A stretch of DNA of 64,000 nucleotides from the NCBI GenBank assembly GCA_963768855.1, contig CAVYJM010000018.1, positions 96,001 through 160,000 on the forward strand, written 5' to 3'. Under the pieces are notes generated by a model that did no database searches, was not told the origin of the DNA, and worked only from the letters and a program-made list of their open reading frames with translations. The stretch's first letter is position 1. Each line of letters starts with the position of its first letter. The stretch is from an uncultured Thermoplasmata archaeon (GTDB taxonomy: Archaea > Thermoplasmatota > Thermoplasmata > RBG-16-68-12). The position numbers and the translations under genes were made by a program. Shown piece after piece: positions 40,418 through 48,864 of this stretch.

Positions 40418-40647
40418 CCCATGACCTCCCCGGACCGCCCCGGCGGGACGGTCGGGTCAGCGGCCGATGAAACCGGGCCTACTTGAAGCTTTTCGGCATG
40501 CCGCCGTTCCCGCGGACGAGGCGGCCCGAGAGGGCTATATCGTTATCGCCCTCGATATCGAGGGCGCTTCTTTTATACCCGAAACCCCGCCATCGCGACG
40601 GTCGTCCCTCCTCTCCTATACAGGGGAGAATCGACTCGGTCGGTAGC

Positions 40648-43600
40648 ATGCCGCGATGCGTCCTCTGCGAATCCGAAGTCCCCGACGGGCGGACCACATG
40701 CGACGCCTGCGGACAGCCGCTCGATCGGCCCGTGACCGGCGCGGCCTCGGCCGGCGCGGTCCGCAAGGCCCTCGAGGGAGCGCGCAAGGACCTCGCCGCG
40801 GCCACCCATGACCGCGTGGACATCGCCTTCGCCCGGGGACTCGTGGAGCGGGCGGAGCAGACGGAGGCGGCCGGGGAGCTCGGACGCGCCCTGGACCTGG
40901 CCCGCGCCTCCCGGCGGGCGATCGACCTCACGAAGCGCCGCGCGCGCGTCGCGGACGCTTTGGCCCGAGCGGAGGCCGTCCTCGCGGGGGCCAAGCAGGC
41001 CGGCATCGAGACGACCGCCTTCGAGTGGAACATCGCGAAGGCGAAGGCCCGCGCCAACACGGGCGACGCGGCAGGGGCCGAGAAGCTCCTGCGCCGCATC
41101 TCCATCCGCACCCTCGACCAGCGTCGGGAGCGGCTCCTCCAGAAAGTCCTCGACAACGCCCAGGCCCGCGTGAACTACGCACGGGAGCGTGGAGGCAGCG
41201 TCATGGACGCCGAGGCGGTCCTCGCCGACGCCCGGGAGGCACTCGCCCTCCGCGACTACGCGAAGATCCGACCCCTCACCGCCAAGGCGATCGAGAAGGC
41301 GGAGGCCGCCCGGAAGTACGCCCGAGCGGAACGGATCCTGGACGGCGCGGCCGTCGAGGTGGACTCCGCCCGGAAGGCGGGCGTCAACATCACCGATTCC
41401 CGAAAGCATCTCACGAGCGCCCGCGATGCCCTGAGGAAAGGCGTCTTCGCGGACGTCCAGACCCTCGCGCAGAAGGCCCGGCACGGGCTGCAAGAGGCCC
41501 GGCGCCGCGCCGCCGCGGAGGGCGTGCTCCGCGAGGCCGAGCGGGAGACAGGCCGGGAAGGGCACAAGGGCGTCGATGTCACTCATGCGGAGGCCTTCCT
41601 CCAGGAAGGCGGCAAGGCCCTGCAGAACCGGGACTACCCGAAGGTCCGCGAGAACGCGGCGGACGCCCATGATGCCGTGCGGGAAGCGGTCCTCCTGAAG
41701 CGTGTGGAGGACTCCCTAGCTGCGCTGCGTCTCGACCTCGAGGATCTGCAGAAGCTCGGCGCGGACTCCTCCGAGTTCGAGTCGGTCCTCGCCGACCTCA
41801 CCAAGGCGGTCGGCTCCCATGATCTCGGCGGAGCCCGGAGGCTCGTGGCCCATGCGCGGCACGCGGCGGAGACCGCCCGCGATGCCCACTACCGCGGCGT
41901 CATGGAGCGCTCCCTGAAGGTCATCCTGATCAACGCATCCCGCGGGCTGGACCCAGAGGTGGGCCGGCAGCTCCTGCGCCAGGTCGACGACGCGATCTCG
42001 CTCGGGAAGACCGTGGACCTCCAATCCCTCATCGACCAGCATCTCCAGACCGCGGACACGGAGACGGAAAGGAAGCTCAATGACCGCGTCCTGGTGGCGC
42101 GCGACGAGATCGTCAAGCTGCGCCAGGCCGGGCAGGACACCGTCGCCATGGAAGGGAAGCTCGCGGACGCCGCAATCGCGATCCAGGAGGGGCGGTTCCC
42201 CAACGCGGACGGCCTCCTCGACGCGGTCGAGCACGATTTCCAGACGATGCGCGAGACCCTCCGAGGCGAGGCCGCCGAAGTCCTCGGCCGCGCGCGCGGG
42301 GAAATCGACCATGCCCAGGCCGCCGGCGTCCCGGTGGATTCCCCCGTTCTGATGATGCTCAAGGAGGCCGAGTCGGCCTACGCGGAGAGCCGCTACGGCG
42401 ACACGGTCTACGTCGGCAAGTCGTGCATCGACGAGGTCCAGCGGATTACGACGGAGGCGCGGCAGGTCAAGGCCGCGTCGACCCAGCAGCAGGCCCGTGT
42501 GAAGGCGGAGCGGATCCAGGGGCTCCGCGACCGGATGCAGACCCTCGGCACGGAGGTCCAACGCCTCGTCGAGGAGAACCTGGACCTGGCGAAGGCGATG
42601 TCCCTCCTGTCCAGCGCAGAGCTGGCCATCAAGGACGACGACCTCGACCGCGCGGAACGGTACGTGTCCGCGGCGGAGGGACTTGTCGACGGGGCGAAGA
42701 CCGCACTCACGCGGGAGGCGACCGAGGCGATCGAGCGGCTGAGGGAGAAGGTCGCCGCGGCCCGCGACGAGGGGTTCCTTTCACCCGAAATGGAGTCGGG
42801 TCTCGCGGAGGCGGAGACCCACCTCAAGGAGGACCGGGCGGGCCACGCCCTGCGCGCCGCCAAGGCCCTGGAGCAGACGATCGAGGCGAAGCGCCACGAG
42901 CGCCTCGTCGAGCAGCAGCGGGTCGCCATGGACAAGGCGAAGTCCGCAGCCACGAAGTTCATCGCGGTCAAGAAGATCATCGAAGACCTCCGCAAGGCGG
43001 ACATCGACATCACCGGCGCGGAAGAGGATCTCCACAAGGCGGAAAAGGCGCTGGACGAGCGCGCGTTCGATGATGTGGACGCGATCCTCACTGAACTCGA
43101 CGAAACCGCCAAGGAGCTCATGGACGAGCTCGTCGCCGCGGCCCGCGCCCTCATCCAGCGGGCCGAGAGGCGAATCCAGGAAGGCAAGGAGAAGGGCATC
43201 GACACCGCAGAGGCGTCGGAGCAGCTCGCACGGGCCCAGGGTCACTTCGACCACACCGAGTACGCGGACGCCGTGGAGTTCGCGCGGGCCGCCGAGACGA
43301 AGGTCACCGAGGCTCTCAAGATCATCGAGGACACGAAGGCGCTCGAGGCCCGCCGGGCACAGGAGACGGCTCGCGGGGAGCTCCAGTCCCTCCGCAAGGT
43401 CATCGCCGACCTGGCGCGTGCCGACATCGCCATGGTGAACGCGGACGGCGCGATGGCACGGGCGGAAAGAGCCTTCGAAGAGGGGCGCTACTCCGAGGTC
43501 CACGCAGAGCTCGCGGAGACCAAGGAGATGGCCCATGGTCTCACGATCGGCCTCGAGGCCGCCGCTCGCGACCTCGTCGGGACCGCGGAGCGCGACGTCG

Positions 43601-46600
43601 AGGAAACCCGCACGGCCGGGTTGGACCCCGGGCGTGCCGCTATGGTCCTCCTCAACGCCCATGAAGCGATCGACGACGGCCGATACGTCGAGGCCATCGA
43701 GTACAAGAAGGTCATCGAGGACATCCTCACGGACGCGAAGCGCGTCCGCGCCACCCGATCCATGAAGGACGACCTGTCGGAACTCAAGGCCCGCATCGAC
43801 GCCCACGCGAAGCTCGGGGCCGACATGCGCATCCCCCAGGAGATCTGGGACAAGGCCGACGTCCGCGCCGCCCAGGGCGACCTGGAGGAGATGGACAGCT
43901 ACCGCAAGGAGATCTCCGAGGCGATCGATATCGCCTCGAAGGCCCACCTGGACAACCTCGTGGGCTCACTCACGCCCCTCGTCGAGGAGGGGACGGAGCT
44001 CGGACTCCGGACCGAGGACCTCGAGGAATCGAGACAGCACGCCTCGGAGGCGGCGCTCGCGGGAGACCTCGAGAGCGTCTATCGCATTAAGGGCGACCTC
44101 CAAGAGAAGGTGCTCGAGGCGAAGCAGCGCGCCCTCCAACGCCGCTCCCTGCAGGAGGTCCAGACCCTCGAAGACCTGCTCGTCCAGAGCGAACGCCTCG
44201 GGATCCCCGTCACGGATGCTCGCACGCGCCTCGACGAGGCGCGCCGCGCCATCGAAGCGGGAGACGTCCCCGGGTTCCAGAACGGCGTCGCCTCCGCGAA
44301 GGAGGCCCTCGATCAATCGAGGAACGATCACTTCATCAGCCGCTACCAGTCCCGCATGCACGCCGTGTCCGCGATGATCGCGAACGCGAAGCGCCTCGGC
44401 GCGGAGATCGGCGAGTCGGAATCCTCTTTGCAGCAGGCGGAGGACGCGGTCCGCAAGAACGACCTGGCGATGGCGGACATCCTGATCAAGCAGGCCGAGG
44501 TCTCCATCGGGATGCAGATCGCGAACTTCATCAAGAACCGGTACCCCAACCTGTCCCTCCACCTCCCGACCACGGGCTTGCAGGCGAACAACTGGAACCG
44601 GTACGTCTTCGAGGTCGAGAACAAAGGCAAGCTGCCTGCCCGCAACGTCGAGTTCGGGTTCGAGGGGGACATCGAGGTCAAGGGCTCGACGCCGATCGGC
44701 GAGCTCGGCGTTGGCGAGAAGAAGCTCGTCGAGGTCGGACTCAAGCCGGGGAGCTCGGGCGAACTGCCGATCACCGTCGATGTCGCCTACCAGCGGATGT
44801 TCGATGAGAACCGCTACGAGCTCAAGGACCGCCAGGCCGTCAAGGTCGAACCCGAAGGCACGTACCTCGTCGAGGACGTGTTCCTGATCCACTCGGACGG
44901 GCGGCTCATCTGCCACCACTCCCGCAAGTTCCGGGAGGAGATCGACGAGGACATCTTCTCCGGCATGCTCACGGTCGTCCGCGACTTCGTCAAGGACTCC
45001 TTCAAGCGCGCGCGCAAGGGGCTCGACCGCCTCGGCTTCGGCGACGAGAAGGTCTTGATCGAGCGGTCCGACCACACCTACCTCGCGACGGTCCTCGTCG
45101 GCGAGGAGCCCAAGCTCTTGCCCCTCTACATGGCCCAGATCCTCGAGGAGGTCGAAACGAAGTACGGGACCGTCCTCGAGAGGTGGACCGGCCTCCTGCA
45201 CCAGCTCGAGGGCATCGACGACATCATCAAGAAGCTCCTCCTGGTCGCGAGCGACCCCAAGGCGGACATGGGCCCCCTCGCGAACAGTTCGATCACGCTC
45301 ACCGCGAAACTCATCGACGCCCTCGGCGTCGAGCAGACGATGGAGGCGAACGAGCTCCTCAGCAAGGCCGAGTCCACGCTCGACACGGACGTGCGGCTCG
45401 CCCTGCAGTTCATCGAGCAGGCGAAGGCCCAGGCGGACGCCGCGCAGCAGCAGCTGCAGGGGAGGATGAGCGACCTCCTGGCGGCCGCACGCGACACGGT
45501 CGCGGAAATGCGGACCCTCGGCGTCGACGTCAGCCAAGCGGAGCTCCTGTTGCGGGAGGCCGAGGAGGCCTACAACGAGGGCAAGTACGAGCGCGTCCGC
45601 GAGATCCATGCCGGGCTGCACGAGTCCCTCGAGCGTGCCAAGGGCGAGATCGCCGCGAAGCGCGTCGAGATCGAGCTCGCATCCCTGATCAACGACATCC
45701 AGATCGCGAAGAGCCAGAACCTCGACGTCCGCGAGGCGGAATCGTACCTCACGAAGATCGAGGCTGCGATCCAGCGGAAGAACTACCGCCAGATGGAGGA
45801 CTACCTCCGGCGGGCCAAGGAGAGCCTCGCGCGCCAGCGGCGGCACACCGTGCTGACCCGCGCGAAGGAGGAACTCACCCGCCTCCAGGCGACCGTCACG
45901 GAGGCCAAGGAGGTCCATGCGGACCTCGGCGACGTGGAGGTCCTGCTGGCCAAGGCGGAGGACGCGCTGAAGGCGGAGGACTTCAAAGGGCTCGAGCCCC
46001 TCATCGACCGCGCCGAGGCCACCGCGAAGGCGCGGGTCGAACAGATCCTGCGGGACCGGTATCCGCGGCTCTTCCTCGAGGAGAAGAACGCGGGTCTCCA
46101 GGCGAACCGCTGGAACCGGATGGAGCTGCAGATCGAGAACAAAGGCGACTGGCCTGCGCGGAACATCATGCCCGTCGTCAACGGCCCCGCGGACGTGCAG
46201 GGCCTCCACAGCGTCGACAAGCTCGACCCCGACGAAAAGGTCTCCCTCGAGTTCGGCGTCCGCCCCCGGGAAGCGGGCACGATGGACCTGGACTTCGAGG
46301 TTCACTACTCGCGTCCCCTGGATGATGCGAAGCACCAGGTCACGGACTCGAAGGTCGTCCGCGTGGAAACCGAGGATGGGTACTCCGTCGAGGACGCCAT
46401 CCTCTTCCACGAGGGCGGGGTCCTCATCTGCCATGAGAGTCGGCTCTACCTCGCCCCGGAGGAGTCGGCGAAGGCGACGAACCTCCAGGCCCAGGCGAAG
46501 GCCCTCGTGACGAAGGCGTACGCGGACCCTGCCGTGAAGGGGGTCCAGCGCGCCCAGATGGGGGACAAGGACTTCTTCGCTACGCGCGGGCCGCGTGTGT

Positions 46601-47802
46601 TCCTGGTCCTCGCCCTCCGGGGCGCGGAACCGAAGACCTTGCCGCTCTACGCCGTCCAGGTGCTCAAGGAGATCCACGACCTGTACGGCATCCGCCTCGA
46701 GAACTGGAGCGGGGACCTGAACGTCCTCGGAGGCATCCAGGACCTCGTCCGCAAACTGCTCTTCGCGACCGAGGTCGAAGGCGTGTCCCTCGGCCCGCTC
46801 GAGGACACCCCGGTCAGCAAGATCGAGTTCCTGCTGGGCCGCGGGTTCCTTGGCGGCAAGGAGGGCGACTTCCTGGCGTCCGCCCGCGCCGCGATCGAGA
46901 CGAGCGGCTACGAGGCCGGGACGAAGATGCTGCAGAAGGTGATTGAGGCGACGGCCGGCCCCGCAGAGGAGATCCAGAGCCAGATCCAGCGCGAGGTCCT
47001 CACCGCGAAGGAGGCGGGGACCCTCCAGCTGTCGGACGAGCAGGTCAAGGCGTTCGTCGACGTGCTGCGGCGCGCCCTGGAGGCGAGCTTCCAGGCGAAG
47101 ATGCGCGCGGGGATCGAGCGCTACTGGCCCGTTTCCCGTCTCGCGATCAAGGCGGACGACCCGCTCGTCTACGATGCGGTCAGCGCCTTCCGGAAGATCA
47201 TCGTCGGGCAGAGCGGCGCGAAGGAGCTCGACATCATCCCGCCGAACGAGACGTGGCGGGGCATGAGGATCGACATCGACGTCCACATGGACTCCGTATC
47301 AGCGGCCTACAAGCTCTGGGCCAAGAAGATCGAGATCCTGCTCCGGTCCCAGGACGCCTGGAAGATCAAGGCGGGCCTCGAGAAAGGCGAGTACTCCGTC
47401 GGCATCGAGGGCCAGAAGGTCCGGATCGATCCAAGCATGGTCTCCTTCGTGGAGAGCATCCCGGAGCACGTGGTCGAGGAGCCCTTCGAAGGCGGCGTCG
47501 TCTTCCTCGACACGCGGCTGAACAAAGACCTGCTCGCGGAGGGCTACGCGCGAGAGATCGTGAGCATCGTCAAGGACTCCCGGAAGGAGATGAAGCTCGG
47601 CGACGACAGCGTCGTGGAGCTCGAGATCGTCGGGACGGCGGACGTCCGGAACATGCTGAAGCCGTGGCGGGACATGATCCTGCGCGAGTCGAACGCCCTC
47701 GAAGTGCGGTTCGGCTCCAAGGCGCCGCAGGACGCCTACGTCGTCGAGGCGGTCCTCGGGAAGGACACCTTGTACCTGGGGATCCGTCAGGCGCAGATGT
47801 AA
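40648..47802 (+). CDS. Giant (about 2,384 aa) protein: Zn ribbon, helical repeats, 2x(Ig-like + longin-like), IleRS-like C-terminal module
   Basis: CVLC...CDAC start; long A/E/K/R/L helical region; internal duplication RYPNL...NWNR...ENKG and RYPRL...RWNR...ENKG; C-terminal VFLDTRL...EGYAREIV. Confidence 0.85.
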   Translation: MPRCVLCESEVPDGRTTCDACGQPLDRPVTGAASAGAVRKALEGARKDLAAATHDRVDIAFARGLVERAEQTEAAGELGRALDLARASRRAIDLTKRRARVADALARAEAVLAGAKQAGIETTAFEWNIAKAKARANTGDAAGAEKLLRRISIRTLDQRRERLLQKVLDNAQARVNYARERGGSVMDAEAVLADAREALALRDYAKIRPLTAKAIEKAEAARKYARAERILDGAAVEVDSARKAGVNITDSRKHLTSARDALRKGVFADVQTLAQKARHGLQEARRRAAAEGVLREAERETGREGHKGVDVTHAEAFLQEGGKALQNRDYPKVRENAADAHDAVREAVLLKRVEDSLAALRLDLEDLQKLGADSSEFESVLADLTKAVGSHDLGGARRLVAHARHAAETARDAHYRGVMERSLKVILINASRGLDPEVGRQLLRQVDDAISLGKTVDLQSLIDQHLQTADTETERKLNDRVLVARDEIVKLRQAGQDTVAMEGKLADAAIAIQEGRFPNADGLLDAVEHDFQTMRETLRGEAAEVLGRARGEIDHAQAAGVPVDSPVLMMLKEAESAYAESRYGDTVYVGKSCIDEVQRITTEARQVKAASTQQQARVKAERIQGLRDRMQTLGTEVQRLVEENLDLAKAMSLLSSAELAIKDDDLDRAERYVSAAEGLVDGAKTALTREATEAIERLREKVAAARDEGFLSPEMESGLAEAETHLKEDRAGHALRAAKALEQTIEAKRHERLVEQQRVAMDKAKSAATKFIAVKKIIEDLRKADIDITGAEEDLHKAEKALDERAFDDVDAILTELDETAKELMDELVAAARALIQRAERRIQEGKEKGIDTAEASEQLARAQGHFDHTEYADAVEFARAAETKVTEALKIIEDTKALEARRAQETARGELQSLRKVIADLARADIAMVNADGAMARAERAFEEGRYSEVHAELAETKEMAHGLTIGLEAAARDLVGTAERDVEETRTAGLDPGRAAMVLLNAHEAIDDGRYVEAIEYKKVIEDILTDAKRVRATRSMKDDLSELKARIDAHAKLGADMRIPQEIWDKADVRAAQGDLEEMDSYRKEISEAIDIASKAHLDNLVGSLTPLVEEGTELGLRTEDLEESRQHASEAALAGDLESVYRIKGDLQEKVLEAKQRALQRRSLQEVQTLEDLLVQSERLGIPVTDARTRLDEARRAIEAGDVPGFQNGVASAKEALDQSRNDHFISRYQSRMHAVSAMIANAKRLGAEIGESESSLQQAEDAVRKNDLAMADILIKQAEVSIGMQIANFIKNRYPNLSLHLPTTGLQANNWNRYVFEVENKGKLPARNVEFGFEGDIEVKGSTPIGELGVGEKKLVEVGLKPGSSGELPITVDVAYQRMFDENRYELKDRQAVKVEPEGTYLVEDVFLIHSDGRLICHHSRKFREEIDEDIFSGMLTVVRDFVKDSFKRARKGLDRLGFGDEKVLIERSDHTYLATVLVGEEPKLLPLYMAQILEEVETKYGTVLERWTGLLHQLEGIDDIIKKLLLVASDPKADMGPLANSSITLTAKLIDALGVEQTMEANELLSKAESTLDTDVRLALQFIEQAKAQADAAQQQLQGRMSDLLAAARDTVAEMRTLGVDVSQAELLLREAEEAYNEGKYERVREIHAGLHESLERAKGEIAAKRVEIELASLINDIQIAKSQNLDVREAESYLTKIEAAIQRKNYRQMEDYLRRAKESLARQRRHTVLTRAKEELTRLQATVTEAKEVHADLGDVEVLLAKAEDALKAEDFKGLEPLIDRAEATAKARVEQILRDRYPRLFLEEKNAGLQANRWNRMELQIENKGDWPARNIMPVVNGPADVQGLHSVDKLDPDEKVSLEFGVRPREAGTMDLDFEVHYSRPLDDAKHQVTDSKVVRVETEDGYSVEDAILFHEGGVLICHESRLYLAPEESAKATNLQAQAKALVTKAYADPAVKGVQRAQMGDKDFFATRGPRVFLVLALRGAEPKTLPLYAVQVLKEIHDLYGIRLENWSGDLNVLGGIQDLVRKLLFATEVEGVSLGPLEDTPVSKIEFLLGRGFLGGKEGDFLASARAAIETSGYEAGTKMLQKVIEATAGPAEEIQSQIQREVLTAKEAGTLQLSDEQVKAFVDVLRRALEASFQAKMRAGIERYWPVSRLAIKADDPLVYDAVSAFRKIIVGQSGAKELDIIPPNETWRGMRIDIDVHMDSVSAAYKLWAKKIEILLRSQDAWKIKAGLEKGEYSVGIEGQKVRIDPSMVSFVESIPEHVVEEPFEGGVVFLDTRLNKDLLAEGYAREIVSIVKDSRKEMKLGDDSVVELEIVGTADVRNMLKPWRDMILRESNALEVRFGSKAPQDAYVVEAVLGKDTLYLGIRQAQM

Positions 47803-47841: not shown

Positions 47842-48864
47842 ATGGGAATCATCCTCTCCGACATCGTCACGCCGGAGCGGCGGACGCTTGAGGACTTCTC
47901 GGGGAAGATCCTCGCCATCGACGCGTTCAACACGCTGTACCAATTCCTCGCGATCATCCGCCAGCCGGACGGGACGCCCCTCATGGACAGCCAGGGCCGC
48001 GTGACGTCGCACTTGAGCGGCCTGATCTACCGCCTCTCCAACTTCGTCGCGGCGGGCATCCGGCCCGTGTTCGTGTTCGACGGGCAGCCGCCGAGGCTCA
48101 AGGCGCGCACAATCGAGGCCCGGATCGAGGTCAAGGCGCGGGCCGAGCGGGAGTGGAAGGAGGCGGTCGAGATCGGAGATCTCGCGACCGCGCGGACGAA
48201 GGCGATGCAAACCTCCCGGCTCACGGGAGAGATGGTCGACCAGTCCAAGCGGCTCCTCGACCTGCTCGGGATCCCCTGCGTCCAGGCGCCGAGCGAGGGC
48301 GAGGCCCAGGCCTCCGCGATGGCCCGCGCGGGCAGCGCGTACGCGGCCGCCTCCCAGGACTACGACGCGCTCCTCTTCGGCTCGCCGCGGCTCGTGAAGA
48401 ACCTCGCGATCACGGGGCGCCGTAAGCTCCCTCGCAAAGAGGTCTACGTGGATGTCCAGCCGGAGGAGATCGGGCTCGAACCGACGCTCAGCGCGCTCGG
48501 CATCAGCCGCGAGCAGCTCGTCGACATGGCCCTCCTGATCGGCACGGACTTCAACGAGGGCGTGCGCGGCATCGGGCCGAAGAAGGCGCTCCACCTGATC
48601 CGAAAGCACGGATCCCTGGAGCCCGCGCTCGCGGAGCTCAAGGTGGACATCGAGTCGAAGGACGAGGTGCGGGAGATCTTCCTCCAGCCGCGCGTCCTCG
48701 CGGAGGTCCGGGTCGAGTTCCGGGACCCGGACGCGGACGGGGTGCGTCGGATGCTGTGCGACGAATTCGCGTTCTCGCGGGAGCGAATCGACCAGGCCCT
48801 CGCGAAATTCGCCGGGGCGAGAGGGCAGCAGAAGCAGAAATCCCTCGACACCTGGTTCGGCTGA
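47842..48864 (+). CDS. fen: Flap endonuclease 1
   Basis: AIDAFNTLYQFL, VFVFDG, QAPSEGEAQ, SQDYDALLFG, GTDFNEGVRGIGPK, PIP box QKSLDTWF. Confidence 0.97.
   Translation: MGIILSDIVTPERRTLEDFSGKILAIDAFNTLYQFLAIIRQPDGTPLMDSQGRVTSHLSGLIYRLSNFVAAGIRPVFVFDGQPPRLKARTIEARIEVKARAEREWKEAVEIGDLATARTKAMQTSRLTGEMVDQSKRLLDLLGIPCVQAPSEGEAQASAMARAGSAYAAASQDYDALLFGSPRLVKNLAITGRRKLPRKEVYVDVQPEEIGLEPTLSALGISREQLVDMALLIGTDFNEGVRGIGPKKALHLIRKHGSLEPALAELKVDIESKDEVREIFLQPRVLAEVRVEFRDPDADGVRRMLCDEFAFSRERIDQALAKFAGARGQQKQKSLDTWFG

Follow-up and report, generated by a model that had tools for sequence, protein, structure and literature searches.

Introduction

The longin and roadblock domains that serve as platforms for Ras-superfamily GTPases are regarded as a hallmark of membrane traffic in eukaryotes, one that has its roots in the Asgard archaea. 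In the genome of an uncultured Thermoplasmata archaeon, we found a gene for a 2,384-residue protein (P0002; 40648-47802, + strand, stop codon included), here called the giant protein, which contains two related domains (L1 and L2) with a predicted longin fold and ends in a tail derived from isoleucyl-tRNA synthetase (IleRS). Positions are those of the window, the whole 64,000-nucleotide stretch that was analysed (positions 96,001 to 160,000 of contig CAVYJM010000018.1, assembly GCA_963768855.1), and all features of the gene are given on the + strand.

The closest described systems resemble different parts of this protein. The longin domains of eukaryotes and Asgard archaea (Sec22b, VAMP7, Ykt6, the AP sigma and mu subunits, sedlin and synbindin of TRAPP, Mon1-Ccz1 and the protein of PDB 8yqg) are sandwiches of about 120 residues, and the model of L1 shows the same sandwich (Z 10-13, root-mean-square deviation 2.5-3.6 Å). 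As with these domains, the family of L1 is tied to Ras-superfamily GTPases, here by gene neighbourhood. However, L1 and L2 have no detectable sequence homology to them, and the giant protein is soluble, carries the domain after an immunoglobulin (Ig)-like domain and offers no SNARE, adaptor or DENN context. Longin and roadblock domains are characteristically dimeric (PMC10933270). MglB and the other Roadblock-LC7 proteins (PF03259) have a related α/β sandwich (Z ~8-9 against L1) and are likewise GTPase-associated platform domains, while L1 has the longin topology, lacks the N-terminal helix and has extra C-terminal helices; the genome also contains separate, genuine Roadblock genes.

In bacteria, the neighbourhood of the Group 1 Rup GTPases contains a transmembrane (TM)-OmpA protein with an unnamed conserved domain and a cytoplasmic coiled-coil protein (Wuichet & Sogaard-Andersen 2014, PMC4316618). 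The domain of the giant protein has clear sequence homology to this unnamed domain over its whole length. The bacterial protein has a single copy in a membrane-adjacent cytoplasmic position, N-terminal to the TM helix and the periplasmic OmpA domain, and a Ras-like gene lies directly downstream, whereas the giant protein is soluble, combines two copies with repeats, Ig-like domains and the IleRS tail, and in this clade has no adjacent GTPase gene. The tail itself is homologous by sequence and fold to the C-terminal region of type-2 IleRS (PDB 8c8v, 8wnd), which consists of ARD2, INS and ARD3, with Q961, R964, K965 and L969 of ARD3 forming the G34 pocket (PMC13752280). In contrast to type-2 IleRS, the giant protein carries this region on a non-synthetase scaffold that lacks the catalytic, editing and ARD1 domains.

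Two modules of an Ig-like and a predicted longin-fold domain

The giant protein begins with a zinc ribbon and a long repeat region, followed by a CARDB-type Ig-like domain with L1, a presumably helical stretch of about 255 residues, a second Ig-like domain with L2, and the IleRS-like tail. We found no TM segment or signal peptide in the whole protein by Kyte-Doolittle analysis, because no 19-residue window has a mean above 1.05, which agrees with the cytoplasmic location given in the first-pass annotation of this DNA.

We modeled L1 (residues 1401-1539; 44848-45264) with AlphaFold2 (AF2; mean pLDDT 81, pTM 0.78). The model has the topology β-β-α-β-β-β-α plus two short helices, which DSSP assigns as E8-15, E20-25, H34-51, E60-64, E67-73, E77-83, H91-111 and H117-130, so that a five-stranded antiparallel sheet has a single helix on one face and the C-terminal helices on the opposite one, as in longin domains. 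In an exhaustive VIA structural comparison with 48,161 PDB representatives, the top 22 matches of L1 were all longin domains (Z 9.6-13.2 over 110-133 residues), among them Sec22 (Z 13.2, 123 residues, 3.2 Å), VAMP7 (12.8), AP-3 sigma (11.5), synbindin (11.2), sedlin (10.7) and the Lokiarchaeota Roadblock-Longin protein (10.7), while the Roadblock, MglB and LAMTOR structures ranked below them at Z 8-9. Foldseek returned AP sigma, zeta-COP (COPZ), VAMP7 and Asgard roadblocks at E values of 1e-5 to 1e-4. L1 does not fall into the Roadblock/LC7 family, as its model, unlike the α-β-β-α-β-β-β topology of that family, lacks an N-terminal helix and opens with two strands, and PF03259 was not matched on the giant protein in the Pfam search. 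The model thus supports a longin fold for L1 and fits it better than a roadblock fold.

At the sequence level, none of the curated longin-type Pfam models (Longin, Clat_adaptor_s, Sedlin_N, SRX and others) matched the giant protein anywhere at E ≤ 1, and PDB searches with two profiles of the domain (A1 and A2) at E ≤ 10 did not bring up any longin or roadblock chain. A1 was built from an alignment of 44 copies, L1 and L2 of 22 homologues. The domain profiles gave marginal PDB matches to MotA (E 0.009) and ribosomal L28e (E 0.68), which we treated as chance.

The second copy, L2 (residues 1907-2046; 46366-46785), is divergent and has 37% identity to L1 (E 1.5e-23), from which homology we expect a longin fold for L2 too. 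The homology extends beyond the longin-fold part: residues 1290-1550 and 1795-2057 have 35% identity over 262 residues (E 2e-56), indicating that a unit of an Ig-like and an α/β domain was duplicated. The first Ig-like domain (residues 1305-1387; 44560-44808) matches the CARDB model PF07705 above the Pfam cut-off (E 4e-7, 30.6 bits versus 22.7). The second (residues ~1811-1893; 46078-46326) has a sub-threshold Pfam Ig match at residues 1825-1889 and is homologous to the first through the internal duplication. The CARDB-like domain, the second helical-Ig-longin unit with internal homology and the longin-like α/β domains at these two positions had all been proposed in the first-pass annotation and hold up here, the longin assignment on the strength of the L1 model.

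The two copies are conserved to different degrees, with a mean column identity of 73% for L1 and 50% for L2, in which the helix-1 motif is not conserved. L1 keeps the consensus of the domain family and ranks with the best-conserved parts of the protein; it is ≥60% identical even in homologues with only ~30% identity over residues 1290-2384. A complex prediction of L1 with L2, run without controls, scored 0.02 against a mark of 0.32, which speaks neither for nor against a pair of the two. In two relatives of the giant protein (L071, CP070751.1, Thermoplasmata bin33; and L070), we noticed three or four tandem longin-fold domains ~505 residues apart; the number of units therefore varies between lineages.

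A large domain family without a curated model

A search of 1.84 billion cluster representatives with the A1 profile yielded 4,376 clusters at E ≤ 1e-3, of which 2,731 also pass E ≤ 1e-10, and we found the domain covered by no model in Pfam or NCBIfam. In the 150 top-scoring matches that do not belong to the giant family, a TM helix usually precedes the domain, which begins ~25 residues further on and is cytoplasmic. It commonly forms the C-terminal end of large proteins with a signal peptide and PKD, FG-GAP, Big or DUF11 ectodomains, and in other layouts it follows bundles of 4-6 TM helices, sometimes in tandem. A few family members stand alone or are fused to zinc ribbons or DUF835, the latter as in P0163; DUF835 is also found on the IleRS of the order.

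The domain reaches far beyond this genome. By tblastn, L1 has 32-40% identity (E 1e-14 to 1e-17) to sequences of Nostoc, Fischerella, Mesorhizobium, Bacteroidales and others, and the A2 profile matches the Nostoc and Mesorhizobium proteins over the whole domain (E 6e-31 and 3e-33). By this whole-domain similarity, L1 and L2 belong to the Rup1-associated juxtamembrane domain family, and the giant protein departs from most other members in having no TM helix next to the domain. In a shape search of the ESM Atlas, proteins with this fold came from Thermoplasmatota, Promethearchaeota and Methanobacteriota, and bacterial OmpA proteins shared it as well. With thousands of members in Thermoplasmata and many bacterial phyla, the premise of the first-pass annotation that longin-type domains mark eukaryotes and Asgard archaea is weakened.

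The window's genome (2.87 Mb, G000) contains 16 copies of the domain besides those of the giant protein, most of them TM-anchored C-terminal tails on proteins with DUF11, Big_5 or fn3 ectodomains, and one with a sub-threshold Robl_LC7 match (E 1e-3). All 21 sampled genomes of the order carry the domain in 4-19 copies each. We also considered that the module of the giant protein might be a surface-protein tail minus its TM helix and found no support for this idea, since a BLAST search of the Ig-longin unit against the 16 paralogues aligned mostly the longin part.

The giant protein has homologues in more than 100 clusters, nearly all 2,384-2,386 residues long and 45-93% identical, which are named as metagenome-assembled genomes of Thermoplasmata, Methanobacteriota or Methanomassiliicoccales, in line with the non-Asgard host first suspected. 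Each of the 21 genomes sampled from one Thermoplasmata order has it. Of 200 further genomes sampled from the phylum, 3 contain a match to the two-unit region at E ≤ 1e-30, in no case over both units. The giant protein, whose family is uncharacterised, is a conserved and soluble member of the system, apparently in single copy. Its most divergent homologue, P0111 (1,539 residues), has the same repeats, two modules of a CARDB and a longin-fold domain, and the IleRS-like tail.

Genomic association with Ras-like GTPases

Small GTPases and roadblock proteins, which might be partners of the longin-fold domains, are well represented in the window's genome. It encodes ~18 GTPases with strong matches to the Ras family (80-135 bits, over the full length of the Pfam model), together with seven Roadblock genes, two of which lie beside an Arf-like GTPase gene. 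Fifteen Ras-like GTPases that we inspected have the motifs GxxxxGKT and NKxD (TKKD in one), with a G3 motif that is mostly DIMGQ/E. Ras-like GTPases number 10-19 in each of five relatives, all from different families. Some Ras-family genes of the genome stand in tandem arrays of two and three (e.g. C7:106450-108233 and C12:41751-42891).

Two of the longin-tail genes, at C6:748095-749174 and C6:703413-705059, are directly followed by a Ras-like gene (at 749275 and 702980, respectively), and a third is located 2.4 kb from two Ras-like genes. With 3 of the 16 domain copies within 3 kb of a Ras-like gene versus 0.66 expected, the association has a p value of ~0.02. In the related genomes G003, G013 and G015, a domain gene likewise adjoins a Ras-like gene. 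Counted by hand in six genomes, 11 of 53 non-giant copies abut a Ras-like gene, a count that is descriptive as related genomes are not independent. The gene of the divergent homologue P0111 shares 14 nt with the end of a gene for a 295-residue Ras-family GTPase (L121:2778-3665). At another locus of the window's genome (L030; G000:C6:391799-392858), a Roadblock/LC7 gene is followed by a gene for a longin-fold domain with a TGA between them, an order reminiscent of the fused Roadblock-Longin protein of Lokiarchaeota (PDB 8yqg).

The association is most regular in bacteria, where 19 of 20 loci have a Ras-like gene 0.9-2.1 kb downstream of the domain gene on the same strand, the exception being a truncated locus. 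These loci come from at least six phyla (Cyanobacteria, Alphaproteobacteria, Bacteroidota, Planctomycetota, Acidobacteriota and Deltaproteobacteria). In Nostoc and Mesorhizobium, the protein consists of the domain, a TM helix and OmpA, and the next gene encodes a Ras-family GTPase of 164-165 residues. The bacterial loci are the Group 1 Rup neighbourhood (PMC4316618), and we found no paper in the literature that assigns a longin fold to its domain. The Rup1 cluster of Nostoc sp. FACHB-280 (L106:1849-5189) encodes a 202-residue coiled-coil protein, the longin-fold-TM-OmpA protein, a 165-residue Ras-like GTPase, in which WDLYGE replaces DxxGQ, and an unannotated protein of 134 residues.

A C-terminal tail derived from isoleucyl-tRNA synthetase

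The tail of the giant protein (residues ~2130-2384; 47035-47799) corresponds to ARD2, INS and ARD3 of type-2 IleRS. Pfam DUF5915 (PF19302) matches residues 2226-2361 with 43.4 bits (cut-off 27; E 3.5e-11), and a profile of residues 2100-2384 (A3) matches residues ~783-1041 of yeast and P. megaterium type-2 IleRS at E values of 2e-9 to 7e-8, the best PDB match being yeast IleRS (8wnd, E 2e-9). The AF2 model of the tail has a pLDDT of 91 and is similar to the C-terminal tRNA-binding domain of PmIleRS2 (8c9d/8c8v) in Foldseek (E 1e-16, TM 0.63). By the Pfam cut-off and by fold, the tail thus belongs to the type-2 IleRS C-terminal region. Only a weak match was found with NCBIfam on the giant protein, to the C-terminal part of an IleRS model.

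The tail and the C-terminal region of the IleRS encoded in the same genome are 31% identical over 238 residues without a gap (E 2e-37), indicating that the tail is a lineage-internal paralogue. It keeps the Arg, Lys and Leu of the G34 pocket (R2312, K2313 and L2317, equivalent to R964, K965 and L969 of P. megaterium IleRS2), of which R2312 and L2317 are nearly invariant among the homologues. Many further invariant residues are located in the INS-like part, and the mean column identity of the tail is 60%. The giant protein is not an IleRS enzyme, having no class I catalytic, editing or ARD1 domain (Pfam found neither tRNA-synt_1 nor Anticodon_1 in it), and the genuine ileS lies elsewhere in the genome (L039; G000:C7:82335-85865).

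In two families of the order (f2 and f3) and in metagenomic relatives, the gene for the giant protein is located directly upstream of ileS, beside the L3-L4-L23-L2 ribosomal operon. The adjacent ileS encodes ~1,460-1,500 residues, comprising IleRS, HhH, zinc ribbons and DUF835. In families f4 and f7, and in the clade of the window, the two genes no longer adjoin. The IleRS of the order is 1,420-1,500 residues long, with HhH motifs, double zinc ribbons and DUF835 after the synthetase; besides the locus given above, ileS is found at L036:14197-18582 and L037:13948-18447.

Proposed role of the giant protein and alternatives

We propose that the giant protein acts in the cytoplasm as a soluble scaffold for a network of Ras-like (Rup-type) GTPases, with its tail linked to RNA or IleRS, a proposal that in our judgement has an even chance of being right. 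It builds on the established architecture, folds, family membership, tail origin and genomic link of the domain family to Ras-like GTPases; every physical contact of the giant protein and the direction of signalling are what we infer. The two Ig-longin modules would be the working heads, with L1 as the canonical, strongly conserved head and L2 as a divergent one. By analogy with other proteins of the domain family and with eukaryotic longin platforms, they would probably dock a Ras-like GTPase as its regulator, anchor or effector. The repeat region of ~1,270 residues could be a long rod for spacing or assembly, much like the separate coiled-coil protein of the bacterial Rup1 clusters, and the IleRS-derived tail would contact RNA (tRNA) or IleRS and tie the GTPase module to the translation apparatus.

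Several observations weigh against this proposal. The nearest Ras-like gene is 50 kb away from the gene for the giant protein in the window, so that the latter does not itself take part in the GTPase adjacency, and we found no GTPase gene near the giant gene in the window's clade, including a relative with 44% identity. Among 28 non-giant archaeal loci, 26 have no GTPase gene within 3 kb. The modeled likeness of L1 to eukaryotic longin domains is at the level of the fold, and a shared fold is no proof of a shared function. Because the tail lacks ARD1, the domain that reads anticodon bases 35 and 36, it is doubtful that the tail recognises tRNA-Ile specifically; nor has the tail kept the Gln of the G34 pocket.

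If the GTPases had no direct part, the giant protein might instead be an anchor of a membrane skeleton, in which a spectrin-like rod organises or anchors the envelope while its longin-fold domains pair, as longin-longin dimers, with the homologous cytoplasmic tails of surface proteins. A spectrin- or tether-like scaffold had also been put forward, as a conjecture, in the first-pass annotation. This would fit the long repeat rod, in which Pfam and the profile self-comparison found no enzymatic domain, the 16 paralogous domains, which are mostly cytoplasmic ends of single-pass DUF11, Ig or fn3 surface proteins or follow bundles of 4-6 TM helices, and the fact that longin and roadblock domains typically work as dimers (PMC10933270). 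We nevertheless consider it unlikely, as the pairing of longin with longin domains is purely conjectural here and the adjacency to Ras-like genes in bacteria, the overlap of the P0111 gene with a GTPase gene and the IleRS-derived tail are left unexplained. Alternatively, the essential function could reside in the tail, acting on tRNA, IleRS or the ribosome, with the longin-fold modules as mere assembly domains; the giant protein would then be, for example, a scaffold of a synthetase complex or a sensor of tRNA charging. A translation-centred factor of this kind is suggested by the high-confidence paralogy of the tail to the tRNA-binding region of the genome's own IleRS, by its invariant INS-like residues and conserved pocket Arg, Lys and Leu, by the gene order with ileS and the ribosomal operon in two families and metagenomic relatives, and by the HhH-zinc ribbon-DUF835 extension on the IleRS of the order itself. 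However, the adjacency to ileS was lost in f4, f7 and the window's clade, the tail has no ARD1, L1 is better conserved than the tail (73% versus 60%), and the GTPase link of the domain family would have no explanation, so that we judge this alternative improbable as well. The scaffold, the membrane skeleton and the translation-centred factor are not mutually exclusive.

We give practically no credence to the explanation that the gene is not real, being a chance long open reading frame (ORF) in GC-rich DNA or an assembly chimaera. Spurious long ORFs are frequent in GC-rich windows, and in this one (GC ~67%) an antisense ORF of 1,106 codons (43966-47286, - strand) runs opposite part of the giant gene; with no coding pattern of GC at the third codon position in its frame, it is most probably an artefact of the high GC content. 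The frame of the giant protein, in contrast, has codon-position GC contents of 0.71/0.41/0.91, the pattern of the real genes in the window. More than 100 homologue clusters maintain the length of ~2,385 residues at 45-93% identity, the family is in 21 of 21 sampled genomes of the order, and two of the domains (L1 and the tail) fold with high confidence in AF2. In a soil metatranscriptome (X20), contigs from relatives with ~90% identity cover most of the gene, a weak hint that it is transcribed since carry-over of DNA is possible; sequencing runs of DNA that hold the sequence come from wetland and freshwater-sediment metagenomes. The conservation data refute both the chance ORF and the chimaera.

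A wider extension of the scaffold proposal, for which we see a slim chance, is that this Thermoplasmata order runs a eukaryote-like longin/Ras-GTPase network that evolved independently of the Asgard archaea. Longin-tailed receptors and the giant protein would converge on Ras-like switches, and the tail would report the status of tRNA or amino acids, analogous to Rag-Ragulator/FLCN and to nutrient sensing by aminoacyl-tRNA synthetases. Independently of this extension, a longin-fold family without a curated model is a regular neighbour of Ras-like (Rup-type) GTPase genes in bacteria and in this order, and the combination of a soluble longin-fold member with a borrowed tRNA-binding domain of IleRS has no described precedent. 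If the proposed contacts are true, each orphan prokaryotic Ras-like GTPase would gain a testable partner, the pairing of longin domains with GTPases would be far older, or far wider in distribution, than the lineage of Asgard archaea and eukaryotes, and GTPase signalling in archaea would seem to be linked to translation. Through its putative function, the giant protein suggests that non-Asgard archaea, too, have a eukaryote-style GTPase-platform system.

Zinc ribbon and repeat region

The first 25 residues of the giant protein contain a Cys4 zinc ribbon (residues 4-25; 40657-40722) with the cysteines C4-x2-C7 and C18-x2-C21 (CxxC-x10-CxxC). The Pfam match to Zn_Ribbon_1 is weak (E 0.03), while the CxxC...CxxC motif is kept in 76 of 96 long homologues, in keeping with the ribbon seen at the N-terminus in the first-pass annotation.

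The following ~1,270 residues (27-1295; 40726-44532) form a region of repeats that BLAST self-comparison did not reveal at E ≤ 0.01. In an hhalign self-comparison of the profile of an 18-sequence alignment, off-diagonal matches appeared with probabilities of 95-99% (E 1e-8 to 1e-19); they are offset by ~63 and ~126 residues within the first 400 residues and by ~141 in the middle of the region, and the autocorrelation of the region has peaks at 141 (z 6) and at 63/66/126/189. These matches and peaks indicate that the repeat region, as read from its sequence, is a degenerate array of ~18-20 units of 63-71 residues. Of the ~1,300 residues of helical repeats proposed earlier, the repeats are therefore confirmed at a slightly shorter length, and their helical nature is presumed from the composition. 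The linker between the two Ig-longin units (residues 1540-1795; 45265-46032) is likewise presumed to be helical and may contain about four more repeat-like units, with the repeat motif at residues 1638 and 1770. A feature search of the ESM Atlas with residues 150-560 found only unnamed Thermoplasmatota clusters and a lead to EzrA (0.76), which is too weak for any conclusion.

Gene neighbourhood

The reading frame of the giant protein extends at its longest from 40483 to 47802, with the first ATG at 40648 and the stop codon at 47800-47802. The gene end at 46800 given in the first-pass annotation is ~1 kb short, as the frame runs on into the IleRS-like tail. About 70 nt before the ATG, we noticed a perfect 18-nt palindrome, GCCCTCGATATCGAGGGC (40548-40565), followed by a TTTTATA box (40571-40577); together (40548-40577, + strand) they could be a regulator site and a promoter.

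Upstream of the giant gene, the window contains a PRC-barrel gene and a GyrI-like gene, and the downstream neighbours are fen1, DUF92 and PGM. The FEN-1 flap endonuclease gene (XPG_N/XPG_I; 47842-48864) begins 40 nt past the stop codon of the giant gene on the same strand. The order of the two genes is kept in the relative with 44% identity (L035), and from this conservation we suspect that they may be co-transcribed.

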